Shown here one piece after another: positions 38 to 42,523 of a stretch of DNA of 45,511 nucleotides (position 1 is the first letter of the stretch; the number at the start of each line of letters is the position of its first letter). Source of the DNA: Escherichia phage vB_Ec-G8; sequence record PQ433350.1; one strand, given 5' to 3'. Under the pieces are notes generated by a model. The model saw nothing but the letters and a program-made list of their open reading frames with translations. It was not told where the DNA came from and ran no database searches. A program made the translations under genes and the position numbers.

Positions 38-3000
38 ATGGCACAAATGATCAAAACAAACATGAGGCTTTGTGATATGGCTGAAGAGATTAAGATTTAT
101 GGTGCCAAAGGCGGAAGCCAGAAGCAGCATCAACCAGTTGAGCAGGAAGATAACCTTATTTCACTTAACAAGGTTAAGGTGTTGCTTGCTGTAGCTGACG
201 GAGAGGTTGACCATAACTTCTCAATGAAGGATTTATACCTTGCTGACGTTCCCGTGCAAAACCAGGATGGTAGCTACAACTACGAAGGTGTTCGCGCTGA
301 GTTCCGCGCTGGTACGCAGTATCAGGATTATATCGCTGGCCTTGATGGTGCAAACTCAGAGATCCAGGCCTCCAGAGAAATCACGAACGACACCCCGTAC
401 ATCATTGCGGTTAACAATACTCAGCTATCAGCAATTCGTGTAAAGCTATACTGGCCTAGACTGGTTAAGCAAGAAAGCAATGGGGACCTGAACGGAACAA
501 CCTGCGAGTATGCAATTGACCTTTCTGTTAATGGTGGAGCATATCAGGAATACACTCGCGGAGTTGCTAACGGCAAGACAACTACAGGTTACGACCGCAG
601 CATTCGCGTGAACCTTCCTGCAGAGTTTGATAGCGCATTGGTTCGCATCCGTAAGATTACAGCAGATTCAACAAGTAGCACGCTGGTTAACGGAATGCAG
701 ATTACAACCTATCAGGAAGTAATAGACGCTAAATTCCGCTACCCGCTTACAGCACTTGTTTACGTTGAGTTCGGCTCTGACCTGTTCCCTAACGGAATTC
801 CAACAATCTCAATCAAGAAGCGATGGAAGTTAATTCAGGTCCCAACGAACTATGATCCTGAGACTAGAACCTACAGCGGCACGTGGAATGGCCTGTTCAA
901 GATGGCATGGTCAAACAACCCTGCGTGGGTTCTCTATGACTTGGTAACAAACCGCCGCTACGGCCTTGATCAGCGAGAGTTGGGTGTAGAAATTGATAAA
1001 TGGGGACTGTATGAAGCTGCGCAATTCTGCGACCAGATGGTGCCTGATGGTAAGGGTGGAATGGAACCGCGATATCTATGCGACATGGTTGTACAGAACA
1101 AGGTTGAGGCCTACACACTAATTCGTGACATTTGCTCAATCTTTCGTGGACTGACTTTCTATGATGGCGAAAAGATTGGTATCGTTGTTGATAAACCTCG
1201 CAATCCATCTTACATCTTCACTAATGATAACGTTGTAAACGGATTGTTCAGCCGCACTTTTGCCAGCGATAAAAGCCTTTACACTACGGCAAACGTTCAG
1301 TTTGATGATGTGGAGAACAACTATCAGCAGGATGTTGAGCCAGTATTTGAGCTCGAGGCTACTCGCCGATTTGGTTTTAACCCGGTCGACCTAACGGCAA
1401 TTGGATGTACGCGAAGAAGTGAAGCAAACAGACGCGGAAGATGGCTACTGAAAACCAACCTGAGAAGCGAAACTATCAGCTTCACTACCGGGTTGGAAGG
1501 CATGATTCCGATGATTGGTGAGGTGATTGCGGTCAATGACGCGGCATGGTCAAGCAACTATCAGTTAAACCTTTCTGGTCGCATTGAATCAGTTCAGGGA
1601 TTGCAGGTTTTCACCCCGTTTAAAGTTGACGCAGCGCCGGGTGACAGAATTCTTTTGAACAAGCCTGACGGAAGTCCGGAGGCAAGAACTATTGCCAGTG
1701 TTTCGGAAGATGGTAGAACAATCAACCTTAACACTGCCTTTAGCTTCGTCGCTCAACCTGATACTGTTTTTGCAATCGATAAGGATAACCTTGCTCTTCA
1801 GCAGTACGTTGTGACCGGGATTCAAAAGGCAGATACTGACGGCTCGGATTCATTCCAGTATACGATTACCGCCGTAGAGTATGACCCGAACAAGTATGAT
1901 GAGATTGACTACGGCGTTAACATCGTTGACCGCCCAACTTCAATTGTTGAGCCTGACAGATTGTCGCCACCAGAAAACCTGACCGCGTCAAGTTATAGTA
2001 AGGTTGTTCAAGGCTTATCAGTTGAGACGATGGTTATTGGATGGGATAAAGCGCCATACGCTAAAACATACAATGTTCAGTGGAGAAAAGAGAATGGCAA
2101 CTGGATTAACGTACCAAGAACAGCTAGCACAGAAGTTGATATTGAAGGTATTTACGCAGGAATCTATGACGTTAGGGTTCGCAGTGTATCAGATACTGAA
2201 AACGTGTCTGCCTGGTCTGGCATTGTAACTGTATCACTAACTGGCAAGATTGGTAGCCCATCGGCACCTACGGTTATAACGGCATCAACTGATGAAGTAT
2301 TTGGCATCCGTGTTAAATGGGGATTCCCTGAAGGATCTGGTGACACTGCTTACACTGAACTTCAGCAGGTTCCAGATAATGGTGATGGTACTTACAATCC
2401 TGATAACGCAAGTTTGCTGACGTTGCTTCCATACCCAGCCTATGAATACTGGCATACGCCAATTCAGCCAGGTAAGGTGATTTGGTATCGCGCAAGATTG
2501 ATTGACAGAATCGGGAACACATCTGATTGGTCTGATTTCGCCAGAGGCATGAGTACTGATGACGCCAACATTATCAATGATTACATCAAGGTTGATATTG
2601 AGAGCTCAGAGGGATTCAAATATCTCGAGCAGAATGCGATTCAAAAGAATCAGGACATTCAGAATCAAGCTGAGGCAATTATCGAGAACGCATTAGCTAA
2701 TGACACTGATGTGCGTCGTATGACTAAGGAGAACGGCAAACGTAAGGCCGAATATGTTCAGGCAGTGAATCTTATAGCTGATGAAACTCAGGCGCGTGTA
2801 GAAGCTCTTACGCAGCTTAAAGCGCAGATAGATGATGAAGTTGTAGCATCGATTACAGAAGTTCAGACAGCGCTAGCCACCGAGACAGAAGCAAGGACTA
2901 CTGCAGACACGGCTCTATCAGCAAGATTGGGTGATAACGAGGCGGCTCTAAGCCAGAAGTTAGACGCATTCTCCAATGCGACATCTACTGGCGTGCAATA

Positions 3001-3463
3001 CGGAATTAGTTTGGGTCTTAAATATAACGGCCAGACTTATTCATCTGGCATGAGCATGGAGCTTGTCGGCACTGGTGGAAATGTTCGTAGTCAATTCATT
3101 TTTGATGCAAACAGATTCGCAATCAGTAATGGAATTGGTTCTGGTTCTGGTCAGTGGCAACTCCCCTTCGTTGTCGAGAACGGAAACGTAATCATCCAAA
3201 GTGCAGTAATTGGTGATGGTTCAATCAGTAACGCGAAGATTGGTAACTTCATTCAGTCCAATAACTACGTAGCAGGAACCACAGGTTGGAGGATTGATAA
3301 GTCTGGAAGTGCAGAGCTAAGCAACGCCACTGTAAGAGGTAATCTTTACGCTAACAATGGTAACTTCGCATTCAACGGAACCAATAACACTGTTCAGATT
3401 AACAACAATGGAATTACGGTAAACTTACCGAACGGAGGTAGAGTTGTAGTTGGAGTGTGGTAA
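38..3463 (+). CDS. Tail tip / central tail fibre protein, lambda gpJ-like host specificity protein
   Basis: 1141-aa ORF; ATG at 38 directly after hairpin+T-run (4-25); gpJ-type conserved block (AWSNNPAWVLYDLVTNRRYGLDQ); follows the gpM/L/K/I-like genes at the window end when read circularly. Confidence 0.9.
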   Translation: MAQMIKTNMRLCDMAEEIKIYGAKGGSQKQHQPVEQEDNLISLNKVKVLLAVADGEVDHNFSMKDLYLADVPVQNQDGSYNYEGVRAEFRAGTQYQDYIAGLDGANSEIQASREITNDTPYIIAVNNTQLSAIRVKLYWPRLVKQESNGDLNGTTCEYAIDLSVNGGAYQEYTRGVANGKTTTGYDRSIRVNLPAEFDSALVRIRKITADSTSSTLVNGMQITTYQEVIDAKFRYPLTALVYVEFGSDLFPNGIPTISIKKRWKLIQVPTNYDPETRTYSGTWNGLFKMAWSNNPAWVLYDLVTNRRYGLDQRELGVEIDKWGLYEAAQFCDQMVPDGKGGMEPRYLCDMVVQNKVEAYTLIRDICSIFRGLTFYDGEKIGIVVDKPRNPSYIFTNDNVVNGLFSRTFASDKSLYTTANVQFDDVENNYQQDVEPVFELEATRRFGFNPVDLTAIGCTRRSEANRRGRWLLKTNLRSETISFTTGLEGMIPMIGEVIAVNDAAWSSNYQLNLSGRIESVQGLQVFTPFKVDAAPGDRILLNKPDGSPEARTIASVSEDGRTINLNTAFSFVAQPDTVFAIDKDNLALQQYVVTGIQKADTDGSDSFQYTITAVEYDPNKYDEIDYGVNIVDRPTSIVEPDRLSPPENLTASSYSKVVQGLSVETMVIGWDKAPYAKTYNVQWRKENGNWINVPRTASTEVDIEGIYAGIYDVRVRSVSDTENVSAWSGIVTVSLTGKIGSPSAPTVITASTDEVFGIRVKWGFPEGSGDTAYTELQQVPDNGDGTYNPDNASLLTLLPYPAYEYWHTPIQPGKVIWYRARLIDRIGNTSDWSDFARGMSTDDANIINDYIKVDIESSEGFKYLEQNAIQKNQDIQNQAEAIIENALANDTDVRRMTKENGKRKAEYVQAVNLIADETQARVEALTQLKAQIDDEVVASITEVQTALATETEARTTADTALSARLGDNEAALSQKLDAFSNATSTGVQYGISLGLKYNGQTYSSGMSMELVGTGGNVRSQFIFDANRFAISNGIGSGSGQWQLPFVVENGNVIIQSAVIGDGSISNAKIGNFIQSNNYVAGTTGWRIDKSGSAELSNATVRGNLYANNGNFAFNGTNNTVQINNNGITVNLPNGGRVVVGVW

Positions 3464-8849: not shown

Positions 8850-8871
8850 GGCCCCTTTCGGGGCCTTTTTT
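8850..8871. terminator. Bidirectional intrinsic terminator (ssb / tail fibre convergence)
   Basis: GGCCCC-tttc-GGGGCC + T6. Confidence 0.75.
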
Positions 8872-11701
8872 ACGAAGCTGTATTTACCTGAAGATATGCA
8901 CCATTAGTTGCACCAAACCATGCGTAAGCAGATCCGTAAGCAGATCCGTAAGTTGTTGGGTTGTCATTTAAAATGAAATCACCCGCTCTAATTACGCACT
9001 TTGCTCCATATGTATCAGTGGGTCTTGCACTAAACCCATAATCAACATATCTAAAACCAACCTTCGTTACGTTATCGTTAAGCGGGAAGATCCTTAAGAA
9101 GCTGGAATCTCTAAAGTCATTGTTCCTGAAAATTCCTCCTGTAAAGTTATCCATATCAAACATTGTGGTTAAACTTGAGGCAACAGTATTCCTGAACTTG
9201 TTGCCTTCATATGTCGGAGCTACTACTTCATAGCCAACTCTTAGCTGAACAAACCCCCCATCAATAATATTGTCCTTGACTATTGGATATTGCCCGCCGA
9301 TTGCTAAGCCACCAAACCCAGGTGTAAATTTGCAACTATTATTACTAAATATAGTGCCAACCCACGCCTGATTTGTAAGGTATGGTGCCTTGGTGTCGGT
9401 CATGGTGTTTCCGGTGATAATCAATCCATTCTTAGCCTGGGTTCCCTCCTGGCAACCCTGAATCGCTACGCCTCCACCAATCATAATGTTGTCTGATATA
9501 AGAATGTTACTTAACCCATCATTAACACCCCAATCGCTTGATGCATCATTTGTTATCAGTAGGTAGTGAGAAGAAGCTCTACCAGTAGCGTCCGTACTTA
9601 TAATACTTGTATTGCCTTTGCATATAACATTGTTTGCCGCAAAAACCTCAACAAATATACCAGCACCTTCGTAGTAGTTATCCGTAACCGTTACGTTATT
9701 GCCAGCCGGGGTTATCCTTGACTGGATAGATATTGGATAATAGAACTTGTTGGCGTGAGCGTAAGACCTTCGGCTTCTCTCGGATATTGCATAATCCTCC
9801 GCGAAAGTATGCCATGCCCTTCCTGACTGTTTTGTTGTGTTTCCTATAAACTCTGAGTAGTCACAGTTTCTTGTGATTAAGCAGTAGTTAACGTTGTATC
9901 TGAAGCTTGAATTTCTAAGAGATACGAATGCATTAGGTAAGCCATTAAGAGCATCGGCATTAACAAAGGCCCTCGAGGCATTAACCTCCATACCCTCGAT
10001 CACAACTGATGCGCATCCTTCAACCATAAAACCAAACCAGTCTTCTCTTGGTTTATGCTCTGTATCCGTTGGTTGGATTGAGTAATCTGAAAAGTCACTA
10101 TTCCAGTTTAGGCCGCTAGCTTTAAGTGTGCAATTCTTTGCGCCGAAAACAACCCTCTCAGGTGATGAACTTCCAGATATATCGATCTCAACATCATTAT
10201 TGGCAAAAATATCAACATTAAGGCCATTAAGGAAGAATGCCGTCTTCCTTAATACGTTGTACTTATCATTGTACTGAATATCAGTGGAGAATGAGACCTT
10301 CAGTCTTCCTGCGCTAATCCTTACCTTCCTGTTTGTGTTGTGACCAAGATTTATACACGCCATCACTGATGCGTTTGATTCATTAACTCCAGAAACATCA
10401 TGCCCAGCCCACTCAGTATGGATATCATCGATCCCTCCTGTAAACCTAACCCAGCAACCATTCCCCCCTGGTGATGGCTCACCAACTCCTCCAAGGAAGT
10501 CTGAAAGCGTGGAATAAGTACCATCAAATGGAACCGTTGGGCTAAAAACAGTAATCCCGTTATGTTCGCTCTTACTTACTAACGGACTCCAGTAGAACAG
10601 ACCGCCACCAGAGTTTGCTCCAGAAATGTAAGACCTTACATTTGCTAAATTTTTATTCTCATTTGTTTGTTTGATTAGTTCGTAAATTGAATCAACTGAA
10701 GATAGTCCTAAATTGCTCCTGGCAAGGCTTTTATCTGCAACATCAGATAAATTCAATGATTTTTGAAAAGTCTCATTTTTTGAGTAAACATCAAGCAAGC
10801 CTCTTACTCGCTGGGCGCTAGCGCCGCCAACCCGACTTCCTGATGCGACATAAAGAGCCTCTCTTGAATAGTAAGTTTTGTTTGGTGCCGTGCCAGTCTG
10901 AGTTAAATCAATCACCCTGTACGTATTATCGGATCCGGTTGATGCTGACACTTGTATGTTCTTAACACCAGTAATCCCCCTTGCTGACTTAACCTCAATC
11001 GCACAAAGCGCGCTATCGGAGTAGGTTATATTTATCACCTCTGGAGCGTTGATCATTGCTGACTTTTGGCATAGGTATCTAGCTCCTGATTTGAAATCAA
11101 ACGTATTCCAGTCAAGTTCTGTCAACTGAGGTGTAAGCGAGCCACCGATACCCATATTGGCAAGAGTTACCATTGTGCCAGCATCACCAGCACTATTAAT
11201 TGCCTCAATAGTAGCATCTCTCGCTGATGTGGTTGTATCCCTTGCGCTAACGGCAGTAGCGGCGCTCTCTGCGGCAGCAATCTGGCTAGCTAAAGACTCG
11301 GCAGCCCCTGTTACTGATTGGTTTGCTAATTGCTCGAAGCGAGGCCAATCGAAATTATCTTGCCCGATAAATTGCAGCAAACTTTCAATAGAAGTCTCCT
11401 TTGACTGATAGTAACGCAGAGTCTCAGCAACATCCTGAGCTAAACCCTGAACGGTAATGCCATCGTGAGCAAGAATCGCGTAACCAGTTCCGGCAGGAAC
11501 AGTTTCAGAATTAGGGTTGTAAACATTAATCTGAGTGTCGCTGATGATTTCAGAGATGGTATAAATTTTAAGTGGACTGGTTTTAAAAATAATGGTTGCA
11601 CCTACACGAATCAGTGTAAGTGGTGCTTTCCATGTTGTCCCGACGCCAGTTACCTCGCCATTTGCGGATAGCGACGCTGTTCCCAAGTCATAAATTGCCA
11701 T
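8870..11701 (-). CDS. Tail fibre / tailspike with right-handed beta-helix (pectate-lyase-like) domain
   Basis: 943 aa from ATG 11701 (GGAG upstream; ORF-track start 11731 is GTG); N-terminal adaptor-like segment, Asn/Gly-rich repetitive beta-helix-like middle; boundary element immediately upstream. Confidence 0.8.
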   Translation of the reverse strand: MAIYDLGTASLSANGEVTGVGTTWKAPLTLIRVGATIIFKTSPLKIYTISEIISDTQINVYNPNSETVPAGTGYAILAHDGITVQGLAQDVAETLRYYQSKETSIESLLQFIGQDNFDWPRFEQLANQSVTGAAESLASQIAAAESAATAVSARDTTTSARDATIEAINSAGDAGTMVTLANMGIGGSLTPQLTELDWNTFDFKSGARYLCQKSAMINAPEVINITYSDSALCAIEVKSARGITGVKNIQVSASTGSDNTYRVIDLTQTGTAPNKTYYSREALYVASGSRVGGASAQRVRGLLDVYSKNETFQKSLNLSDVADKSLARSNLGLSSVDSIYELIKQTNENKNLANVRSYISGANSGGGLFYWSPLVSKSEHNGITVFSPTVPFDGTYSTLSDFLGGVGEPSPGGNGCWVRFTGGIDDIHTEWAGHDVSGVNESNASVMACINLGHNTNRKVRISAGRLKVSFSTDIQYNDKYNVLRKTAFFLNGLNVDIFANNDVEIDISGSSSPERVVFGAKNCTLKASGLNWNSDFSDYSIQPTDTEHKPREDWFGFMVEGCASVVIEGMEVNASRAFVNADALNGLPNAFVSLRNSSFRYNVNYCLITRNCDYSEFIGNTTKQSGRAWHTFAEDYAISERSRRSYAHANKFYYPISIQSRITPAGNNVTVTDNYYEGAGIFVEVFAANNVICKGNTSIISTDATGRASSHYLLITNDASSDWGVNDGLSNILISDNIMIGGGVAIQGCQEGTQAKNGLIITGNTMTDTKAPYLTNQAWVGTIFSNNSCKFTPGFGGLAIGGQYPIVKDNIIDGGFVQLRVGYEVVAPTYEGNKFRNTVASSLTTMFDMDNFTGGIFRNNDFRDSSFLRIFPLNDNVTKVGFRYVDYGFSARPTDTYGAKCVIRAGDFILNDNPTTYGSAYGSAYAWFGATNGAYLQVNTAS

Positions 11702-26015: not shown

Positions 26016-26201
26016 ATGAAAACCAAAATGATTCACAAGTCAGAAGTAAAAATTGGCGACACGGTAATTCACTGCGGTGAGATGAAGACGGTTGGCATGG
26101 AAACATTTGGCAAGGATGAGTTTATGGGACTCCTACTGTGGGGTGATAGCTATCGCTGCGGCTACAAGATGGTTGAGGTTGTAACTGATGTTAAGTTTTG
26201 A
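26016..26201 (+). CDS. Hypothetical protein (61 aa)
   Basis: GGAGA RBS; TGA stop abuts an element. Confidence 0.5.
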   Translation: MKTKMIHKSEVKIGDTVIHCGEMKTVGMETFGKDEFMGLLLWGDSYRCGYKMVEVVTDVKF

Positions 26202-26219
26202 ATAGCACGAATTGCTAAA
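26202..26219 (+). promoter_or_regulatory. Boundary element copy, precedes 26287 ORF
   Basis: TGA-ATAGCACGAATTGCTAAA; TGaTATAGT extended -10 downstream. Confidence 0.6.
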
Positions 26220-26286: not shown

Positions 26287-26469
26287 ATGCAAGTTTATAA
26301 ATCACCTGGCGGCGCTCGTTACGTTGTTGTTGATGGCAGGGTGTACTGCAAGCCGCTAACCGGATTCACATTTCGCTCGTCAATGACGGTGGATCGATAC
26401 CTTGAGTTGATAGGTTGGGGATTTCTTAGGTTTGAAAAGGTAATCAAGCCTATAATGACCGTCAAATAG
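26287..26469 (+). CDS. Hypothetical protein (60 aa)
   Basis: ORF between two element copies; weak RBS. Confidence 0.45.
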   Translation: MQVYKSPGGARYVVVDGRVYCKPLTGFTFRSSMTVDRYLELIGWGFLRFEKVIKPIMTVK

Positions 26470-26484
26470 CACGAATTGTTAAAA
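26466..26484 (+). promoter_or_regulatory. Boundary element variant
   Basis: ATAGCACGAATTGTTAAAA; leader CCACACATCAACCACAAG. Confidence 0.5.
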
Positions 26485-27213: not shown

Positions 27214-27359
27214 TTTTATACATACATGAGTACTGGACGGGGAAGTTTAACACAGTTCGACATGTCCGGGTTTACGAATATTATGTAAATGCATTCAATC
27301 AGCAGAAGGTTCTTGGTGGCACCATCAAGGTTTGCGATGTTGTGGATGAGATTTACTAA
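27210..27359 (+). CDS. Hypothetical small protein (49 aa)
   Basis: ATGA-coupled; TAA stop immediately precedes an element. Confidence 0.35.
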   Translation: MILYIHEYWTGKFNTVRHVRVYEYYVNAFNQQKVLGGTIKVCDVVDEIY

Positions 27360-27378
27360 ATAGCACGAATTGCTAAAG
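27360..27378 (+). promoter_or_regulatory. Boundary element copy, precedes 27434 ORF
   Basis: TAA-ATAGCACGAATTGCTAAAG, TGtTATAGT, CCACATCAAAACTAACGAGG. Confidence 0.65.
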
Positions 27379-27433
27379 CAGTCTTGTGGTAATTTGTTAT
27401 AGTTACCACATCAAAACTAACGAGGTTATAAGA

Positions 27434-27538
27434 ATGAGTGAATTAATTAAAACTATCGCGGACTATCCATTTGCTTCGCTTTTTCTTGCTCTTGCAATAT
27501 ATGAAATTGTAAAGATTATTGTCAAATGTATTAAATAG
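27434..27538 (+). CDS. Putative 34-aa membrane peptide
   Basis: Hydrophobic core FASLFLALAIYEIVKIIV; bounded by elements on both sides. Confidence 0.3.
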   Translation: MSELIKTIADYPFASLFLALAIYEIVKIIVKCIK

Positions 27539-27553
27539 CACTAATTTCTAAAA
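27535..27553 (+). promoter_or_regulatory. Boundary element variant, precedes 27609 ORF
   Basis: ATAGCACTAATTTCTAAAA, TGcTATAGT, CCACATCAAAACGAAACAGG. Confidence 0.6.
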
Positions 27554-27608
27554 CATTATCGGGGTATCTTGCTATAGTTACCACATCAAAACGAAACAGG
27601 AAGCAGAA

Positions 27609-27788
27609 ATGAGATTTCAACAATCAGAACCTAAACTCCAGGCTAACCACTTCGACGGATACGCAACATTCATCATCGCTCAGGCGTGCGGTGTGCGTGA
27701 GGAGCCACAGGTTCACACCATCCACTTAACCGAAGAGCAAGCTCGAGAACTGGCTTACGAAATTCTTGAGCAATTGAATCGAATTTAA
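27609..27788 (+). CDS. Hypothetical small protein (59 aa)
   Basis: Preceded by element + leader (CACATCAAAACGAAACAGGAAG). Confidence 0.4.
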   Translation: MRFQQSEPKLQANHFDGYATFIIAQACGVREEPQVHTIHLTEEQARELAYEILEQLNRI

Positions 27789-28331: not shown

Positions 28332-28571
28332 ATGTTCGGACTAAATGAAGCGATGTTCAATGCTGTAAAGCGCCAGGCCGCAAAGTTGAACGAAGAGTAC
28401 ACCAATCTATCGCCAAAGCAGCGTAAGGACGATAAGCAGGTTGCGGCATTGATTTCAAAGATGTGGGAGCCGGTTTTCACAATCATTAGTAGAGATCGAT
28501 TTGTGTGGGTATCTGGTTATCTTAAGGGCCGTGTTGGTCATGACGAAAATGGGAATAGCCTTTATGAGTGA
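28332..28571 (+). CDS. Hypothetical protein (79 aa)
   Basis: Preceded by element + leader (CACATCAACACAACGAGAGATTGAG). Confidence 0.5.
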   Translation: MFGLNEAMFNAVKRQAAKLNEEYTNLSPKQRKDDKQVAALISKMWEPVFTIISRDRFVWVSGYLKGRVGHDENGNSLYE

Positions 28572-28650
28572 GTTAACAATCTGGTTTATCGCTGGGTTGA
28601 TTACGTGGGCTTATTTTTTAATCGTTTAGACGGATATTGTTAAAAAGAGC

Positions 28651-28679
28651 TTGCATCACTGACTGGAAGTGCATAATAT
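28651..28679 (+). promoter_or_regulatory. Sigma70-like promoter upstream of the tRNA region
   Basis: TTGCAT - 17 nt - TAATAT, with TG upstream of the -10 (TGcATAATA). Confidence 0.45.
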
Positions 28680-28845
28680 TAACCACGTAGGCAAACGAGG
28701 CCACCAAGTGGCAACGGCGCACGGAGCGCAACTACTAAGTCCGTTGCTCATTAAGTAGCGTATGCGGCATTAAGACCTAGCGCAAATAGGCAGATTAACC
28801 GGCTGTATCAGGCAGCCCCGGAGCCGTAACCGGGACTCATTCAAA

Positions 28846-28923
28846 GCTCTGCTAGCTCAACGGGAAAGAAGCAACGACCTTCTAAGTCGTAGGTTACTGG
28901 TTCGAATCCAGTGCGGAGCGCCA
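28846..28923 (+). tRNA. tRNA-Arg (anticodon UCU)
   Basis: Cloverleaf folded by hand: 7-bp acceptor stem (GCTCTGC/GCGGAGC with one G-U), anticodon stem ACGAC/GTCGT, loop CTTCTAA (anticodon TCT at 28881-28883), T-arm ACTGG-TTCGAAT-CCAGT, discriminator G and encoded CCA. Confidence 0.85.
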
Positions 28924-29024
28924 ATAAAACGCCAGATTAGCTATCTGGAAGTCTTCGAGTGCAAGCCGCTGGTTATCCTTGTGGTAATTAAGCTTGCAGC
29001 GGAGCGCCAATTAAGGAGCTCATT

Positions 29025-29207
29025 ATGTGGGATGTGAAGTTGTCCATTCGCTTAATGGGCCGCTCATGCAAAAATTGCACTCAAGAATACATCGCGTCAG
29101 TTGCCGCAATCAGCGCTGAGGATGCGGTAGCAAAAGTAAAGGAGATGTCAGGCGCTGACCCTGACACCCACAAATTCCTGGTAGCTTACGTTCGTGAGCG
29201 AAAGTAA
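29025..29207 (+). CDS. Hypothetical protein (60 aa)
   Basis: AAGGAG RBS; followed by terminator. Confidence 0.5.
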   Translation: MWDVKLSIRLMGRSCKNCTQEYIASVAAISAEDAVAKVKEMSGADPDTHKFLVAYVRERK

Positions 29208-29251
29208 AAAGTGTTATACCCTCGTTAAGTTTAGTTTCTCTCGTTGTTTTG

Positions 29252-29274
29252 GCCCTCGCTTGAGGGCTTTTTTT
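29252..29274 (+). terminator. Rho-independent terminator before terminase genes
   Basis: GCCCTC-gctt-GAGGGC + T7. Confidence 0.75.
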
Positions 29275-29294
29275 CGTCTGTAATATGGTATAAT
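29268..29294 (+). promoter_or_regulatory. Promoter-like extended -10 (TGgTATAAT) upstream of the terminase genes
   Basis: TGGTATAAT at 29286-29294 directly after the terminator T-run; CGTCTGTA box shared with 35863-35870. Confidence 0.4.
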
Positions 29295-29317: not shown

Positions 29318-29824
29318 ATGAGCAAAGCAGCATTAAAGATGGGTGAGGGAAATTTCAAGGCGCTATACAACAAGAAGTATGGCGACATTGCTATGGTGGC
29401 AATCAACCGCAAGTACACGCCTGAGGAAGTTTTCGATTTCGCCGTTAGATACTTCTCCTGGGCTGAGAGCGAGGCAATTAAGGCTATTGAGACGGCTGCT
29501 TTCCAGGGTGTGGTTAGCGAGAGCCTCGTACACAAGCCTAGAGTATTCACCTTAACTGGGCTGGCGCTCTTTATGGGTGTCAATATCAATAGATTCGCTC
29601 GCTGGCGTACTGAGGCTGGATACTCTGATGTGATGGAATTCATTGATAACGTTATTTACGAGCAGAAGTACCAGCTTGGTGTCGCAGGCATCATCAACTC
29701 TACCATCGTTGGTAAAGAGCTAGGAATTGATAAGCCGCAGGAGATTAAGATTAGCAACAACTCAACAGCTAACGATGTTGACAGTATGAAGGAAGCTCTG
29801 GAATCTGTAATTAGCAAGCTATAA
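29318..29824 (+). CDS. Terminase small subunit
   Basis: 168 aa ORF immediately upstream of the large terminase; AAGGAGGA RBS; assignment by position and size. Confidence 0.7.
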   Translation: MSKAALKMGEGNFKALYNKKYGDIAMVAINRKYTPEEVFDFAVRYFSWAESEAIKAIETAAFQGVVSESLVHKPRVFTLTGLALFMGVNINRFARWRTEAGYSDVMEFIDNVIYEQKYQLGVAGIINSTIVGKELGIDKPQEIKISNNSTANDVDSMKEALESVISKL

Positions 29825-29841: not shown

Positions 29842-31407
29842 ATGTCTTTAGTATGGGAAGAAATGACCATTCAGGAAAAGATGGCTGTTAAGGCGATATC
29901 AGAACACAGCTTCGAGGGTTTCCTTCGTTGCTGGTTCCAGATTACACAAGGCGAACGATACATCCCTAACTGGCATCACAAGTACTTGTGCAGAATCATT
30001 GACGAGATTATTGCAGGCGAAAGAAAGGACACCATTATCAACATAGCACCAGGCAGCGGAAAGACGGAAATTGCCTCAATCCACTTCCCGGCCTATTCGA
30101 TGGTTAAGCTTAGGAAGGTGCGCAACCTTAACATCTCTTTTGCTGACTCCCTGGTTAAGCGTAACTCGAAGCGAGTGCGTGACCTTATCAAGTCTCAAGA
30201 ATTTCAGTCACTCTGGCCATGCAAGTTTGGCACTTGCAAAGACGATGAGCTTCAGGTTCTTGATGAGAGTGGCAAGGTTAGATTTGAGTCAATATCAAAG
30301 GCGGCTGGAGGCCAGATTACTGGCGCTCGCGGTGGGTACATAACCGAAACATACAGCGGAGCCGTTCTTTTGGATGACTTTGACAAACCCGCAGATATGT
30401 TATCAGCAGTGTACCGCTCGAATAATCACGTAATGCTTAAAAATACGATTCGCTCACGTCGAGCCAGTTCTGTAAAAGGCAAAGCGACACCAATCATTTC
30501 GATACAGCAGCGGCTTCACGTCAATGACTCAACCTGGTTCATGATGGAGGGGGGTATGGGTATCGACTTTGACTTGGTTAAGATACCGGCTCTGGTTACT
30601 GAGGATTACATCGACTCGCTCCCTGACTGGATTAAAGATCAGTTTGCTGAGGACGTACTAAGCAGCGAATATATTGAGCGAGATGGCGTAAAGTACTACA
30701 GCTACTTTCCTAAAAAGGAATCCGTAAACGACCTGGTGGCAATGTGGGATAGCGACCCCTACACTTTCCTCAGCCAGTATCAGCAGGAGCCAGTAGCGCT
30801 GGGTGGCAACCTAATTAACGTGGACTGGTTCCAGCGAATCAGTGATACGTTCAGACCTCCAGCTAAGTACGACTATCGATTCATAACTTGCGATACCGCA
30901 ATGACCACTAAAAGTTACAGCGACTTCTCTGTTCTTCAGTTGTGGGGCTATAAAGATGCTAAGATTTACCTTATTGATCAGCGCAGGGGTAAATGGGAGG
31001 CCCCAGAGTTGGAGGCTGAACTGCTGGACTTCGAGAAGAAATCAAGGGCAACCAGTCAGTCAGATGGTATCCTCAGAAAGATTATTATCGAGAAGAAAGC
31101 GTCTGGTATCGGCCTGATTCAATCAGCTGGCAGGGTTATGCGAACACCGATAGAGCCATACGTACCGGATAATGACAAGCTAACCAGGGTGATGAGTGCA
31201 CTACCACAGATTAAGGCTGGTAACGTAGTTCTTCCAGAGTCATCGCCGTGGCTAAACGGATTGCTCACTGAGGTTGCGGCTTTTACGGCAGATGACTCGC
31301 ATAAGCACGACGACCAAATTGACTGTCTAACAATGGCGGTAAACCTTGTGCTTAACATCGCGGATGATCCTAAGGCGAGACTGATGCGCATAGCGGGAAT
31401 GAAATAG
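29842..31407 (+). CDS. Terminase large subunit
   Basis: 521 aa; N-terminal ATPase with Walker A (APGSGKT), C-terminal nuclease-like acidic residues; TAG stop inside an element. Confidence 0.9.
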   Translation: MSLVWEEMTIQEKMAVKAISEHSFEGFLRCWFQITQGERYIPNWHHKYLCRIIDEIIAGERKDTIINIAPGSGKTEIASIHFPAYSMVKLRKVRNLNISFADSLVKRNSKRVRDLIKSQEFQSLWPCKFGTCKDDELQVLDESGKVRFESISKAAGGQITGARGGYITETYSGAVLLDDFDKPADMLSAVYRSNNHVMLKNTIRSRRASSVKGKATPIISIQQRLHVNDSTWFMMEGGMGIDFDLVKIPALVTEDYIDSLPDWIKDQFAEDVLSSEYIERDGVKYYSYFPKKESVNDLVAMWDSDPYTFLSQYQQEPVALGGNLINVDWFQRISDTFRPPAKYDYRFITCDTAMTTKSYSDFSVLQLWGYKDAKIYLIDQRRGKWEAPELEAELLDFEKKSRATSQSDGILRKIIIEKKASGIGLIQSAGRVMRTPIEPYVPDNDKLTRVMSALPQIKAGNVVLPESSPWLNGLLTEVAAFTADDSHKHDDQIDCLTMAVNLVLNIADDPKARLMRIAGMK

Positions 31408-33161: not shown

Positions 33162-34247
33162 ATGTCTAAAGCCCGCTATGACAGTGTAAAGTTTAAAGCA
33201 ACAATCGACGAGAATGGATTCTTAGTTGACACTCCGGTAGTCGCTCGTCTCGGCGTGCAAGTCTACTACATGGAAGATGGTCGAACGGTTCGAGAGTTTC
33301 GCCCGGCAGAGGAGGTTTTCAATGATGAATCTCTGGCAAGCTACCAGGGTAAGCCAATGACTCTTGATCATGTTTTCGTTAACTCAGAGAACGCTAAAGA
33401 GGTAGTAGTCGGCTCAGTTGCTGGAAAGGCAGAGCCATTAGGCAGCTCCGTGGTTGCTCCAATTGTTATTTACGATAATGCCGCCATTCAGGAAGCTATG
33501 TCAGGTAACGCAAAGGAGTTATCCGTTGGATACTCATCAGTCATTGATTACACCCCAGGTTGGGGTGACCCTGTTACTGGTGAGTACTTCCTTAAGTCTG
33601 AAAGTGAGCTATTCGACGTACCAGAAGGATGGCAGGAGTTCGACGCAATTCAGCGTGACATTAAAGTGAACCATCTCGCAATGGTATATCGCGGTCGCGC
33701 AGGTATTGCCAAATTGAATATGGACGGTGAGCAGGAAAACCCGTATACTACTGACGTTGATATCAATAAAGAGGATAAACAGGAAATGATTAAGATTAAA
33801 CTCGACGGCGCGCAGGAATTCGAAGTCGCCCCGGAAATCGCTTCTCACATCGAAGCGCTGAACGCAAAGGCTGACACCGCAATCGCAGAGCGCGACTCGC
33901 TGAAAGCTAAGGTAGATGCAATGCCAGCTGAAATCGAGAAAGCAGTAGCTAAAGCTAAAGCTGATGCCGATGCCCTAGCCGCTCTGGTTGCTGTTGCTGC
34001 TGAAGCTGGTGTTAAGGCTGACGGCCTGGATGCTAAAGGCATTAAAGTTGCTTACGTTAAAGAAGTCTCCGGTCTTGATGTTTCCGAGAAGTCTGACGCT
34101 TACATCGACGCAGCGTTCGACATTGCCAAAGAATCTGATAAAATGGCTGAAGTACGTAAAGCGACTACCGCTTCCGACAAATCTGACAGCGCCGAAGAGC
34201 CTAAGAAATTAGACCCGCGTGCTCGTTTAGCTAAAATTAAGAAATAA
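33162..34247 (+). CDS. Head morphogenesis protein (putative prohead protease / scaffold)
   Basis: 361 aa from ATG 33162 (GAGGAG SD; ORF-track start is GTG); C-terminal Ala/Lys/Glu/Asp-rich coiled-coil-like scaffold tail. Confidence 0.55.
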   Translation: MSKARYDSVKFKATIDENGFLVDTPVVARLGVQVYYMEDGRTVREFRPAEEVFNDESLASYQGKPMTLDHVFVNSENAKEVVVGSVAGKAEPLGSSVVAPIVIYDNAAIQEAMSGNAKELSVGYSSVIDYTPGWGDPVTGEYFLKSESELFDVPEGWQEFDAIQRDIKVNHLAMVYRGRAGIAKLNMDGEQENPYTTDVDINKEDKQEMIKIKLDGAQEFEVAPEIASHIEALNAKADTAIAERDSLKAKVDAMPAEIEKAVAKAKADADALAALVAVAAEAGVKADGLDAKGIKVAYVKEVSGLDVSEKSDAYIDAAFDIAKESDKMAEVRKATTASDKSDSAEEPKKLDPRARLAKIKK

Positions 34248-34892: not shown

Positions 34893-35834
34893 ATGGCCAT
34901 TAAATTTGATGCAGAACAAGCAAAAATCACCGCTCATCTCGAGCAAATGGGCGTAGACAAAGCTGATGCCGCTGGTATCTGGACCGTTAAGCAACTGACC
35001 GCCAATCTGGCACGTGCTTACGAAAAAGAATATCCAGACAACTCCGTTGTTAATATCTTCCCTGTAACCAATGAAATCCCAGGTCATGCGAAATATTTCG
35101 AATATCCAGAATTTGACGGCGTTGGCATTGCTCAGATTATCGCTGATTACTCTGACGACTTGCCGCTGGTTGATGCGTTTATGACCGAGAAACAAGGTAA
35201 AGTGTTCCGCTTCGGTAACGCGTTCCTGATCTCTACTGATGAAATCAAAGCTGGCGCTGCTACTGGTCAATCGCTGTCATCTCGTAAGCAGGCGTTGGCA
35301 TTCGAAGCGCACGATAACCTGTTGGATAAACTGGTATGGTCCGGCTCTACACCGCACGGCATTCCTAGCGTATTCGACCATCCGAACATCAACAACGTTG
35401 TTGCTGGTACGTGGAACTCCGCAGCTGCCGCCATGACTGATATTACCGCACTTATTGATGCAATCGAGACTTCGACTAATGGCACTCACACCGCAACTGA
35501 TATTCTGCTGCCTGCTTCCGCTCGCCGCCTGATGCAAGAGCTGGTTCCTAACACCTCTATCAGTTACGCGCAGCTGTTCGCCACCAACAACTCGGGTATC
35601 AATCTGCGTTACCTTCAGTTCCTGGATAACTACGATGGCGCAGGCGGCAAGGCTGCTCTGGCTTTTGAGAAGGATCCGCTGAACGCTAGCATCGAGATTC
35701 CAGAAGCTACCAACGTACTTCCTGGTCAACCGAAAGATTTGCACTTTAAGTACCCGGTAACTTCTAAAGCGACAGGTTTGATTTTATATCGTCCTCTGAC
35801 GATGGCAGTAATGAAAGGCATTACCTACCAGTAA
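34893..35834 (+). CDS. Major capsid protein
   Basis: 313 aa; strong codon usage; position and size; bracketed by terminators. Confidence 0.8.
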   Translation: MAIKFDAEQAKITAHLEQMGVDKADAAGIWTVKQLTANLARAYEKEYPDNSVVNIFPVTNEIPGHAKYFEYPEFDGVGIAQIIADYSDDLPLVDAFMTEKQGKVFRFGNAFLISTDEIKAGAATGQSLSSRKQALAFEAHDNLLDKLVWSGSTPHGIPSVFDHPNINNVVAGTWNSAAAAMTDITALIDAIETSTNGTHTATDILLPASARRLMQELVPNTSISYAQLFATNNSGINLRYLQFLDNYDGAGGKAALAFEKDPLNASIEIPEATNVLPGQPKDLHFKYPVTSKATGLILYRPLTMAVMKGITYQ

Positions 35835-39544: not shown

Positions 39545-42523
39545 ATGGCAACAAATGAATTAGCCGGAATCACACTAGCCGTAGACGTCTCGCAGGTAGA
39601 CAGGGGAACGCAATCCCTACAAAAGTTCAGACAGGCCAACCAACAGGCTGCATCTGGGATTAGTGAGTTCGTCAATGCTGAGCAGGTTGCTAAAAACCAG
39701 GCTAGAGATACCGCTCGCGCACTTGCTGAGCAACAGGCATCTTTAGCTAAATTGCAAACAGCTATTGACCCAACTGCGGCAAAATTCCGCAAGCTGCAGG
39801 AGGCTGCTGTAGGTCTTGATAAGGCGTTCGCTGCTGGAGTGGTTCCCGATGAGGAGTTTTTCCGCTTAGGCGAGGCACTTGAAACGCAGAATGCAAAACT
39901 TGCTCGTTCACGTGCGGCGCTAACTGAAGAGGGTAGAGCAGCTGCTCAGGCTGCAAAAGATAAAGCAAAGGCAAAGGCTGAAGCTGACAGGTTCATTGCT
40001 TCACTTGAGCGCCAGGCTCAAGCGGCAACATTGACGCGCGAGGAGTACTTAAAGTTACAGGCTGCTCAGCTTGGTGTAAGTTCCCAGGCAGCACCCATCA
40101 TTGACAGAATCGCCGATGCATCACAGAAGGCAAACACCCAGCTAATTGCTCAGAGCAAGGCTTTTCAGCGCTCTGGCTTAAGCGCAGGTCAATACAAGAA
40201 TGCCATATCTCAACTACCAGCGCAGATTACTGATATTGGCACGTCGCTTGCTGGAGGCATTCCGATTTGGCTTATTGCAATTCAGCAGGGTGGGCAGATC
40301 AAGGATGCATTTGGCGGTATTGGTAACACCTTTAGATTCGCGCTTGAAGCCTTAAACCCATTTAATGTAGCTGTTGGTGTTTTGGGTGGGGCGCTTGTAG
40401 CTCTTGGTGTTGGTGCAGCTCAGGCTGAGAGTGAATTCAGGGCGTTAAACTCCGCGATTGTGTTCTCCAACAACTCTACAATCGCATCAATCTCGCAGGT
40501 TAGAGAGTTGGTTAGCTCTGTTTCTGATGCAACAGGTGCTACCAGAGGACTTGTGACTAGCATCGCAACAAGCCTTATTGAGCAAGGGAACCTTACGCTG
40601 ACGCAGATTGACAAGATTACTAAATCGACCGCAAGATGGGCGCAGTTGACAGGTAAGGATGCGAAGGAGATTACTGGTTACTATAACCAGATTGCAAGCG
40701 ACCCAATCCAGGGTTTAGTTGATTTGGATAAGCGCTTTAACTTCCTCACACAGGGGCAGTTGACGACAATCGAAAACCTGAGAAAGACAAAGGGAGAAGT
40801 TGAGGCCGTTACTGCTGCGATTGATATTTTCAGCAAGTCTCAGGAAGCCAACCTTAACGACATAGCTGCGCAGTTAACTCCGCTTGAGCTAGCCTGGAAT
40901 GATTTCAGAAAGTACATCTCTGATATCTGGGATGCAATTAGTCGTAGAACGGTCGGGGCGCTGAACCTATTTGTTGACGTAATCGCCGGAACGATTGAAC
41001 AGATCAGGGTATTCATTAACCAGGGTGATGTTCTGATTGGTGAATTCGTAATTAGCGCAACTCAGGCATTGCAGAACATTCCTGGTCTTGATGGCGTTGG
41101 TGATGATGTTATCAAGGGGCAGCAGAAGATTATCGATGCCGCCAAGAAGCAAAACCTTGAGCTAGAGAAGTCAATCAAGGAGCGAGATGCCAGAATCAGA
41201 GAGGGAGAGCTTGGTTACGTTACTCGCAGAGAAAATCAGAATACCAATGAGCAGTCAGGTACTGATGAGGAATTTGCAAAAAGGAAGAAGGCGCTTCAGG
41301 ATGAGCTTGATGCGATCAAGAAGAACAGGAAAGAAGAAAATAGTAGGGTTAAGGAGCAAAGAGATTTAACAATTGGTTATGAATCTGGCGTTCTGGCGCT
41401 TCAGGCTCAACTCAAGGTGCTTCAGGAAAACAGGGATATTGGCGCAGTAATAAGCAATGAGCGCAAGCAGTATCTTCAGGAGGAGGCCAAATTCAGGATT
41501 CTTGAGCAGAGACAACTTGATGGCTCAATTACCAAAGAGCAAGCAAGACTTCTCATTGAAAAGGATAAAGTTCTTGAGTTAGCCAGACAGAAGGCTGAGC
41601 TAGGTGATCAGATTGTTTTGCAGGAGCGAGCTAATAAGTTAGCTGAAGATAACCGCAAGAAGATTCTTCAGATTAACAATGAGGCAAGTAACATTGATTT
41701 GGGTGCTGGTTTATCATCTCGCGAGCAGCAGAGAGCCAAAGAGATTCAGGCTCTTCAATCCAATCAGGTTAATGCTGGTGGTTCTGTTGATGATGTTGAT
41801 TTTCAGCAATTGCTGGAAGCAAGAAAGGAATACTACAAGCAGGAGGATAATCTTAGGTCAGACTGGCAATCCGGTGTAACATCCACTCTCGCCGACTTGA
41901 CAGAGAAGTACACTGACTACAACCAGATTGCTAAGGACTTAACTGTTGCGGCATTCGATGGAATTACAGACCAGATTACAAACCTTGTAACCACTGGTGA
42001 GACCAATTTCAGGGAGTTCACCGCAAGCATCCTCAAAATGATTGCGAAGATTGCAACTCAGTTGCTTTTGGTTAAAGCTATAGAATCAACACTAACTAGT
42101 TTTGGTGGTGGTGGTGGTAACGCGTTTGGCTCGCTTGCATCTGCTATAGGTTTTGCTGGTGGCGGTTACACTGGTGATGGTGGGAAGTATCAGCCAGCAG
42201 GTACGGTTCATCGAGGTGAGTTTGTATTCACAAAAGAAGCGACAAGCCGAATTGGTGTCAAAAACCTTTATGCGCTAATGAAGGGTTACGCAAACGGCGG
42301 CGCGGTTGGTGGTCCTTCAGGATATGCAAATGGCGGCTTGGTTTCTGGTGGTTCAGATGTTAATGTTAGCGGGATTACTGTTAACGTCAATGGTGGCGTT
42401 GGTAGCGACCCAGAGCATGCCAAAGCATTGCAGAGCGGCGTCAAGGCTATCGTAGCGGAAGAAATTGCTCAGTCTTTCCAGCAGGGTGGGCGTGCCTATG
42501 CTTACCTTCGCGGATTCAACTAA
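39545..42523 (+). CDS. Tail tape measure protein
   Basis: 992 aa; coiled-coil Ala/Gln/Lys/Glu-rich; Gly-rich C-terminal region; GGAGG RBS. Confidence 0.9.
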   Translation: MATNELAGITLAVDVSQVDRGTQSLQKFRQANQQAASGISEFVNAEQVAKNQARDTARALAEQQASLAKLQTAIDPTAAKFRKLQEAAVGLDKAFAAGVVPDEEFFRLGEALETQNAKLARSRAALTEEGRAAAQAAKDKAKAKAEADRFIASLERQAQAATLTREEYLKLQAAQLGVSSQAAPIIDRIADASQKANTQLIAQSKAFQRSGLSAGQYKNAISQLPAQITDIGTSLAGGIPIWLIAIQQGGQIKDAFGGIGNTFRFALEALNPFNVAVGVLGGALVALGVGAAQAESEFRALNSAIVFSNNSTIASISQVRELVSSVSDATGATRGLVTSIATSLIEQGNLTLTQIDKITKSTARWAQLTGKDAKEITGYYNQIASDPIQGLVDLDKRFNFLTQGQLTTIENLRKTKGEVEAVTAAIDIFSKSQEANLNDIAAQLTPLELAWNDFRKYISDIWDAISRRTVGALNLFVDVIAGTIEQIRVFINQGDVLIGEFVISATQALQNIPGLDGVGDDVIKGQQKIIDAAKKQNLELEKSIKERDARIREGELGYVTRRENQNTNEQSGTDEEFAKRKKALQDELDAIKKNRKEENSRVKEQRDLTIGYESGVLALQAQLKVLQENRDIGAVISNERKQYLQEEAKFRILEQRQLDGSITKEQARLLIEKDKVLELARQKAELGDQIVLQERANKLAEDNRKKILQINNEASNIDLGAGLSSREQQRAKEIQALQSNQVNAGGSVDDVDFQQLLEARKEYYKQEDNLRSDWQSGVTSTLADLTEKYTDYNQIAKDLTVAAFDGITDQITNLVTTGETNFREFTASILKMIAKIATQLLLVKAIESTLTSFGGGGGNAFGSLASAIGFAGGGYTGDGGKYQPAGTVHRGEFVFTKEATSRIGVKNLYALMKGYANGGAVGGPSGYANGGLVSGGSDVNVSGITVNVNGGVGSDPEHAKALQSGVKAIVAEEIAQSFQQGGRAYAYLRGFN

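Follow-up and report, generated by a model that had tools for sequence, protein, structure and literature searches.

That bacteriophages carry tRNAs for codons that are rare in their hosts is textbook biology, and the tRNA-Arg of phage T4 is functionally like the tRNA-Arg(UCU) of the Braunvirinae, the gene at the center of the locus described here. The species 1 and 2 RNAs of T4 are stable RNAs that share a transcript with tRNAs and owe their maturation to RNase P, and the precursor of 4.5S RNA is a hairpin-type substrate of the same enzyme. Moreover, integrases that target tRNA genes leave a characteristic signature, namely foreign DNA enclosed by direct repeats that contain the 3′ end of the tRNA. 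Among the Braunvirinae, the same tRNA-Arg(UCU) gene is found in the same place, between the small early genes and the gene for the small terminase subunit, and its presumed role, there as in Escherichia phage vB_Ec-G8, is the decoding of AGA, a codon that is rare in the host. The gene is already annotated in the GenBank records of vB_EcoS-12210I, PsgS01F and SCS31, and the tRNA-Arg of phages SU57 (PMC7718038, where AGA is termed rare) and MSK (PMC8421802) has been considered in the literature as a help in the decoding of AGA. In some Drexlerviridae (PsgS01F, CEB_EC3a, BEK6, Opt-79 and ETEP102), tRNA-Arg(UCU) is followed in tandem by a second tRNA with the anticodon UAU. Compared with the other Braunvirinae, vB_Ec-G8 does not differ in the tRNA itself; it alone, however, carries an 86-bp insertion after the tRNA.

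Phage vB_Ec-G8 is an E. coli siphophage of the Drexlerviridae/Braunvirinae (Rtp-like, T1-like), and BEK1-1, IME253 and DTL are ~87% identical to it over 20 kb. The window referred to below is the whole stretch of vB_Ec-G8 DNA that was analyzed, 45,511 nt in length. The tRNA locus is flanked by small early genes on one side and by the terminase genes on the other, and includes the following features downstream of a leader that is described further below:

28846–28923, + strand: tRNA-Arg(UCU) gene with encoded CCA (ARAGORN and Rfam; annotated and conserved in relatives)
29013–29018, + strand: Shine-Dalgarno sequence AAGGAG of the 60-aa ORF
29025–29207, + strand: 60-aa ORF (ORF60; phrog_2919, function unknown; conserved)
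29251–29276, + strand: intrinsic terminator-like hairpin with a T-run, which closes the unit
29318–29824: small terminase subunit (phrog_606)
29842–31407: ORF of the large terminase subunit

The Shine-Dalgarno sequence lies 6 nt before the ATG of ORF60, a position that is kept in all relatives. In each relative examined, the tRNA slot is followed by ORF60 itself, which lies immediately next to the tRNA where the slot is empty. The leader, tRNA-Arg(UCU) and ORF60 are a unit common to the Braunvirinae (T1/Rtp-like) coliphages.

The assignment of the tRNA made in the preliminary description is borne out by both programs used. ARAGORN identified a tRNA-Arg with the anticodon tct at 28846–28923 as the sole tRNA of the window, and the Rfam model RF00005 matched 28846–28920 over its full length (1–71) with 56.6 bits, against a gathering score of 29, the CCA being encoded at 28921–28923. 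The anticodon loop is CUUCUAA (UCU), the T-loop UUCGAAU and the discriminator G73, followed by the 3′ CCA; as had been proposed, such a tRNA is predicted to read AGA (and AGG). The gene, which looks functional, belongs to a family that is known and annotated. It is present in 19 of the 19 relatives checked; its variation from one tRNA type to another (BEK2, IME542 and TR1) is compensatory, and in TR1 it occurs as a CCU version. Relatives with the tRNA type of vB_Ec-G8 have an identical 3′ half (T arm, 3′ strand of the acceptor, and CCA), whereas this half differs in BEK2, TR1, IME542, SCS31 and FP. The host tRNA-Arg is only ~78% identical to that of the phage, and the comparison points to an old phage gene and not to a recent capture.

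In E. coli, AGA and AGG are the rarest arginine codons, at roughly 2 and 1 per 1000. Codon usage in the phage, to which the preliminary description had pointed as a check, turned out to be rich in both: in 39 ORFs that are 100 aa or longer (a crude selection, in which a few may be spurious), AGA and AGG occur at 10.8 and 6.9 per 1000 codons, respectively, and together make up 37% of the arginine codons. This usage fits codon supplementation by tRNA-Arg(UCU). The distribution of the two codons across ORFs is very uneven, with a concentration in long ORFs: in ORFs 38–3463, 8870–11701 and 39545–42523 they account for 43–85% of the arginine codons (24 of 56 in the first and 31 of 51 in the last). 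Several ORFs of the head/tail region at 33–39 kb, such as those at 33162–34247 (361 aa) and 34893–35834, contain neither.

The insertion that distinguishes vB_Ec-G8 involves the following features:

28913–28928, + strand: first copy of a direct repeat, consisting of the last 11 nt of the tRNA followed by AT and AAA
28926–28998, + strand: unique inserted sequence of 73 bp (an alignment gap in all relatives; no database match)
28932–28948, + strand: hairpin A, CCAGAU-UAGCU-AUCUGG (predicted)
28951–29007, + strand: hairpin B, a 7-bp stem core with an extended base (predicted; MFE and centroid structures agree)
28999–29014, + strand: second copy of the direct repeat, an orphan tRNA 3′-end fragment with no cloverleaf

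The 13-mer GCGGAGCGCCAAT occurs exactly twice in the window, at 28913–28925 and 28999–29011. Its recurrence had been noted, and is exact; only the coordinates given for the second copy (29001–29013) were off, by 2 nt. Likewise, the second copy lacks a complete cloverleaf as had been stated, and neither Rfam nor ARAGORN finds a tRNA in the insert. The repeat extends to 16 nt with 15 of 16 matches (GCGGAGCGCCAAT[A/T]AA), at a spacing of 86, and is one of only four families of short-range direct repeats in the window. By our own arithmetic, the whole genome should contain ~0.2 direct repeats of an exact 13-mer within 300 nt by chance, and ~1e-5 in the case of GCGGAGCGCCAAT; therefore, the repeat is not due to chance. 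The first copy represents an A allele (CCAATAAA) and the second a T allele (CCAATTAA), and both alleles are found in relatives in which the site is empty.

The locus was collected from GenBank phages, IMG/VR, and JGI/ENA metagenome contigs. The slot is empty in phiA2-1, DTL, 12210I, IME253, ZL19, BEK2, BEK1-1, IME542, SCS31 and TR1 and in the metagenome relatives L021 and L024; in such phages, the CCA of the tRNA is followed after no more than a few nt by the AAGGAG Shine-Dalgarno sequence and then by the ATG of ORF60. The junction in L021 and L024, GCGGAGCGCCAATTAAGGAG, is exactly that formed by the second copy and the downstream Shine-Dalgarno sequence in vB_Ec-G8, except that there it lies within an intact tRNA. 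Because the same junction thus exists without the insert, vB_Ec-G8 equals the empty site plus 86 bp. The phages with an empty slot belong to several genera and have visibly different tRNA-Arg sequences, and since the empty state spans these genera and tRNA sequence types, it is ancestral by parsimony. The 86-bp insertion in vB_Ec-G8 is therefore derived and bounded by the repeat, and what looks like a duplicated tRNA 3′ end is the right-hand boundary of an indel. The duplication of the 13-mer is absent from every related genome examined, a result that the preliminary description had itself listed as refuting, so that the suggestion, made in the preliminary description, of a tRNA-like processing signal is unsupported; the lack of any match to the insert in GenBank phages (below) is equally at odds with it.

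Searches failed to identify a donor of the 73 bp in GenBank phages, E. coli genomes, plasmids, IMG/VR or GTDB. BLASTN (word size 11) yielded no match in 50,697 GenBank phage records, in 5,426 complete E. coli genomes or in the PLSDB plasmids, and blastn-short none in the rest of the window or in all the collected relative loci. The scans of the other collections, IMG/VR and GTDB, were limited to exact matches with sub-patterns of the insert and recovered only chance matches without flanking similarity. The 73 bp contain no ORF, and literature searches returned nothing that describes the insert. Several kinds of origin were considered and rejected. A MITE or transposon with a target-site duplication does not match a single-copy sequence that has no inverted repeats at its ends and no copies in the GenBank phages, E. 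coli genomes or plasmids searched. There is no sharp switch between two parents at the insert; instead, identities to relatives vary everywhere along the region. HindIII, SacI and BbsI sites are present in or beside the insert, yet they are common throughout the genome, and the GC content of the insert resembles that of the genome; an engineered or cloned origin was discarded.

Furthermore, the place of the insertion is variable across the group. An insertion of ~108 bp is located at the same point in PsgS01F, UALMA_PCEc3, CEB_EC3a and BEK6 and in contigs L019 and L022, and contains a real 99-nt tRNA with the anticodon UAU and a long variable arm (39.4 bits with Rfam). Additional ORFs are found at the junction in Rtp, FP and the contigs L012, L020, L023 and L025. 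The tRNA-Arg of SCS31 (L035, 963–1037) has a chimeric T-arm, the 5′ strand of which, GGTGG, is of the IME542 type whereas the 3′ strand, CCAGT, and the acceptor end are of the vB_Ec-G8 type, resulting in a mismatched T-stem; this arrangement indicates a recombination crossover inside the 3′ part of the tRNA. Given that the junction is empty, occupied by tRNA(UAU) or occupied by extra ORFs in different relatives, and given the SCS31 chimera, it qualifies as a recombination hot spot. Across the region, the nearest neighbors of vB_Ec-G8 shift from segment to segment, in a pattern of general mosaicism.

The phages with tandem tRNAs are the closest counterparts of vB_Ec-G8 at this point: in both cases DNA has been added at the point where the 3′ end of tRNA-Arg meets the ORF60 Shine-Dalgarno sequence, and in both the added DNA is flanked by repeats, which in the tandem-tRNA phages are short (CCAA(T)). 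In contrast to the bona fide tRNA that is shared by many phages, however, the insert of vB_Ec-G8 is no tRNA and is confined to this phage. With regard to tRNA(UAU) itself, we observed that in PsgS01F (L002, 1791–1889), as well as in L010, L019 and L022, it carries a 25-nt insertion in the variable arm and is missed by ARAGORN with default settings. It is also present, at 75–93% identity, in unrelated phages of Vibrio, Klebsiella, Xanthomonas and Pectobacterium, which suggests a phage tRNA cassette that may be widely exchanged. As an additional observation, 'Pseudomonas phage PsgS01F' (PP134917.1) and the E. coli phage vB_EcoS_UALMA_PCEc3 both have a length of 44,679 bp and share a 100% identical cassette; PsgS01F falls within the coliphage Braunvirinae, and its Pseudomonas host label is doubtful.

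Taken together, these comparisons lead us to regard as reasonably likely that the 86-bp insertion is private to vB_Ec-G8, that illegitimate or short-homology recombination gave rise to it at a mosaic joint beside the tRNA, and that it is probably neutral. Ancestrally, the Shine-Dalgarno sequence of ORF60 comes ~5 nt or less after the CCA end of the tRNA. At this junction vB_Ec-G8 alone has gained the insertion, composed of 73 unique bp and a 13–16-bp duplicate of the tRNA end and spacer. The likeliest cause, we infer, is illegitimate or short-homology recombination at the hot-spot junction, with the orphan 13–16-nt fragment of the tRNA end left behind by the event. In the RNA, the insert would place two predicted hairpins in the spacer between the tRNA and ORF60; the Shine-Dalgarno sequence is predicted to remain as accessible as before, and the addition is probably neutral. 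Genomic scars in which a partly duplicated tRNA end bounds an insertion are known, and this is a new instance. Against the recombination scenario stands the failure of the searches to return a donor, and against neutrality the fold of the insert, which is somewhat better than those of shuffled sequences (z = −1.98), and the position of the hairpin B helix, the end of which, a few nucleotides before the Shine-Dalgarno sequence, could hint at selection.

The insert could instead descend from a second tRNA, if an ancestor with tandem tRNAs had lost the tRNA body through mutation or internal replacement and retained only the 3′ acceptor/CCA end. The preliminary description had raised a similar possibility, namely the remnant of a degraded tRNA array, and the part of it that stood is the existence of a real second tRNA (UAU) in the slot of some relatives. 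Indeed, two phages of this kind, PsgS01F and CEB_EC3a, are among the closest relatives of vB_Ec-G8 on both flanks (95% identity on the left and 96% on the right). Moreover, the unit 28930–29009 is of tRNA size (80 nt), ends in CCA and, as in PsgS01F, comes after an AT-rich spacer, here ~6 nt long. The part that did not stand concerns the insert beyond the 13–16-nt repeat, which has no tRNA signal and no significant similarity to tRNAs: in comparison with tRNAs, the terminal 13–16 nt are the only match within 28926–29011. RF00005 has no match to the insert at E≤10, and ARAGORN reports 0 genes at thresholds of 60–80%, with introns allowed, or in mitochondrial mode. A diverged copy of tRNA-Arg is rejected by local alignment, in which 920 of 2000 shuffles score as high, and so is a diverged tRNA(UAU) cassette, for which the alignment is not significant (~200 of 2000 shuffles as high); the shuffle-tested alignment also rejects a resemblance between the 5′ end of the insert and that of the UAU cassette. 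The similarity to either tRNA body thus being within the range of shuffles, the insert furthermore lacks a 5′ acceptor strand complementary to GCGGAGC, and 13 identical bases next to 73 unrecognizable ones are at odds with uniform decay. We therefore hold the origin from a decayed second tRNA to be unlikely.

That the insert is a functional RNA element is a quite unlikely explanation. It would entail either a minihelix, formed by hairpin B and the 3′ …CGCCA, that is recognized by RNase P or other enzymes acting on tRNA ends, or a 5′ stem-loop that stabilizes the ORF60 mRNA after excision of the tRNA. The 7-bp hairpin to which the preliminary description drew attention is real, with TGCAAGC at 28960–28966 and GCTTGCA at 28992–28998 forming an exact inverted repeat around a 25-nt loop. 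At its base, GUCUUCG (28951–28957) is predicted to pair with CGGAG-C-GC of the second repeat copy, so that hairpin B would stack on the repeated acceptor 3′ strand through a CUUCG-CGGAG pairing and leave a single-stranded …CCA tail. Superficially, this restores a helix that stops just short of the Shine-Dalgarno sequence, where the acceptor stem ends in the relatives. The z-score of the fold given above speaks for such a role, and the AU-rich AAUAAAA after the tRNA CCA may resemble an RNase E-type site, a likeness that draws on the established 3′ processing of E. coli tRNAs. The T4 species 1 and 2 RNAs and the 4.5S RNA precursor offer a further comparison: like these, the unit would comprise a structured non-tRNA RNA co-transcribed with a tRNA, and in hairpin B, too, the helix abuts a 3′ tail that contains CCA. 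In contrast to these RNAs, the insert has no similarity to them in sequence or model and no conservation, and it is known from sequence alone. The helix leaves two nucleotides before the CCA, and not one discriminator base, and includes bulges; moreover, the basal pairing of hairpin B disappears in favor of other pairings once the downstream mRNA is included in the fold. The insert is absent from all the relatives and databases searched, and with one genome there is no covariation; the relatives do without the element. An effect on translation initiation was considered as well and rejected, given that the predicted accessibility of the Shine-Dalgarno sequence (0.56 with the insert versus 0.64 without it) and of the AUG is essentially unchanged.

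Integration followed by deletion is improbable in our assessment. Under such a scenario, an element would have integrated site-specifically into the tRNA 3′ end, with duplication of the core, and would then have been almost wholly deleted. As with the attL and attR cores of tRNA-targeting integrative elements and temperate phages, a repeat that overlaps the tRNA 3′ end (13 of 13 exact, 15 of 16 when extended, spacing 86) brackets DNA that is missing from the empty site, and the BLAST matches included attP sites of phages that match host tRNA-Arg genes, for example APSE-2. Unlike in those elements, however, the repeats enclose no more than 73 bp, in which there is neither an integrase nor other cargo and which lack terminal inverted repeats; they could be assigned to no element family, and the target is the genome of a virulent phage. 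In addition, the host tRNA-Arg being only ~78% identical to that of the phage, the 13-mer is phage-specific. Finally, an assembly or sequencing artifact, which the restriction of the insertion to one genome might bring to mind, is very improbable, considering that the insert is non-repetitive, similar to the genome in GC content (45% versus 44%) and without a match to vectors or other parts of the genome, and that a repeat of 13 bp is too short to mislead normal assemblers.

Whereas the recombination scar, as we prefer to read the insertion, is restricted to a single phage, the region on the other side of the tRNA is shared across the group:

28651–28679, + strand: promoter-like element, TTGCAT, 17 nt, TAATAT (inferred)
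28684–28845, + strand: structured 5′ leader of 162 nt, directly upstream of the tRNA (conserved, with covariation)
28717–28729, + strand: leader hairpin GCGC-ACGGA-GCGC, with CGGAGCGCA at 28722–28730

The hexamers of the promoter-like element are invariant or nearly so in 19 relatives, with a spacer between them that varies. The element is weak, with ~7 of 12 consensus positions, and a consensus scan gave no call; it is a putative promoter. The leader is 92–96% identical in most of the closer relatives, compared to 74–86% for the upstream protein-coding gene, and is always linked to tRNA-Arg, even across differing tRNA sequence types. RNAalifold analysis of 19 distinct relatives yielded 35 base pairs, 10 of them with compensatory double changes, in a predicted fold of ~6 hairpins; 98.9% of cells are paired, compared to 25–41% with slid partners, the covariation is reached by 0 of 500 shuffles, and BEK1-1 provides one more compensatory variant. 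The evidence for structure is comparative only, the single-sequence folding energy being unremarkable (z = −0.82). G-U pairs assign the structure to the + strand, and coding is unlikely because the leader accommodates hairpin insertions of variable length and indels that are not multiples of three. Searches of Rfam 15 at E≤10 returned no match to the leader (tRNA excepted), and literature searches nothing that describes it.

The preliminary description had linked the upstream CGGAGCGCA to the tRNA end. The motif is indeed present, albeit at 28722–28730 and not at 28729–28737, and forms half of the GCGC-N5-GCGC hairpin, the stem of which is invariant in 19 of 19 sequences (in DTL the loop is GCGTA). 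Since the hairpin remains unchanged in BEK2 and TR1, in which the tRNA 3′ end differs, CGGAGCGCA is not a relic of a tRNA; for the same lack of co-variation, it was rejected as a partner of the tRNA end.

Some additional observations concern the region upstream of this unit. The start of a hydrophobic mini-ORF of 21 codons (28564–28629, + strand; MSELTIWFIAGLITWAYFLIV) overlaps the stop of the 79-aa ORF that precedes it (ATGAGTGA), and the mini-ORF may encode a translationally coupled membrane micropeptide. Farther upstream, a 19-nt element (AATAGCACGAATTGCTAAA) with the palindrome TAGCA-N5-TGCTA is present four times, at 26201–26219, 26465–26483, 27359–27377 and 27534–27552. Two of the four copies are contained in 88-nt repeats that are 76% identical to each other (27351–27438 and 27526–27613) and terminate in the Shine-Dalgarno sequence and ATG of small ORFs; these repeats resemble promoter/operator cassettes that have been reiterated in the early region of small genes.

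The leader is a candidate new structured RNA of phages and the only element of this locus that may be new. We consider it possible, as a tentative proposal, that it is a structured RNA that functions in its own right. The unit would then be an operon of non-coding RNA anchored by a tRNA. The leader would define a new family of phage RNAs, the 3′ end of which would be set by RNase P cleavage at the tRNA, and would serve as a stable small RNA or, in cis, as an element needed for the expression of the tRNA or ORF60 in all Braunvirinae phages. By extension, the machinery that processes the tRNA could also set the limits of a second RNA, the hairpin capped by the tRNA end (28951–29011), in vB_Ec-G8 only, a notion that we regard as highly doubtful.

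As for the significance of these findings, the duplicated 3′ end, being a private indel, matters little as such, and is of modest value as a clean case of mosaic phage genomes being joined by recombination at the boundary of a tRNA gene. The leader is the more interesting and more useful by-product of the analysis. If it is a functional RNA, it would represent a new and experimentally tractable non-coding RNA in the phages of a common coliphage group, which are also frequent contaminants of laboratory cultures.
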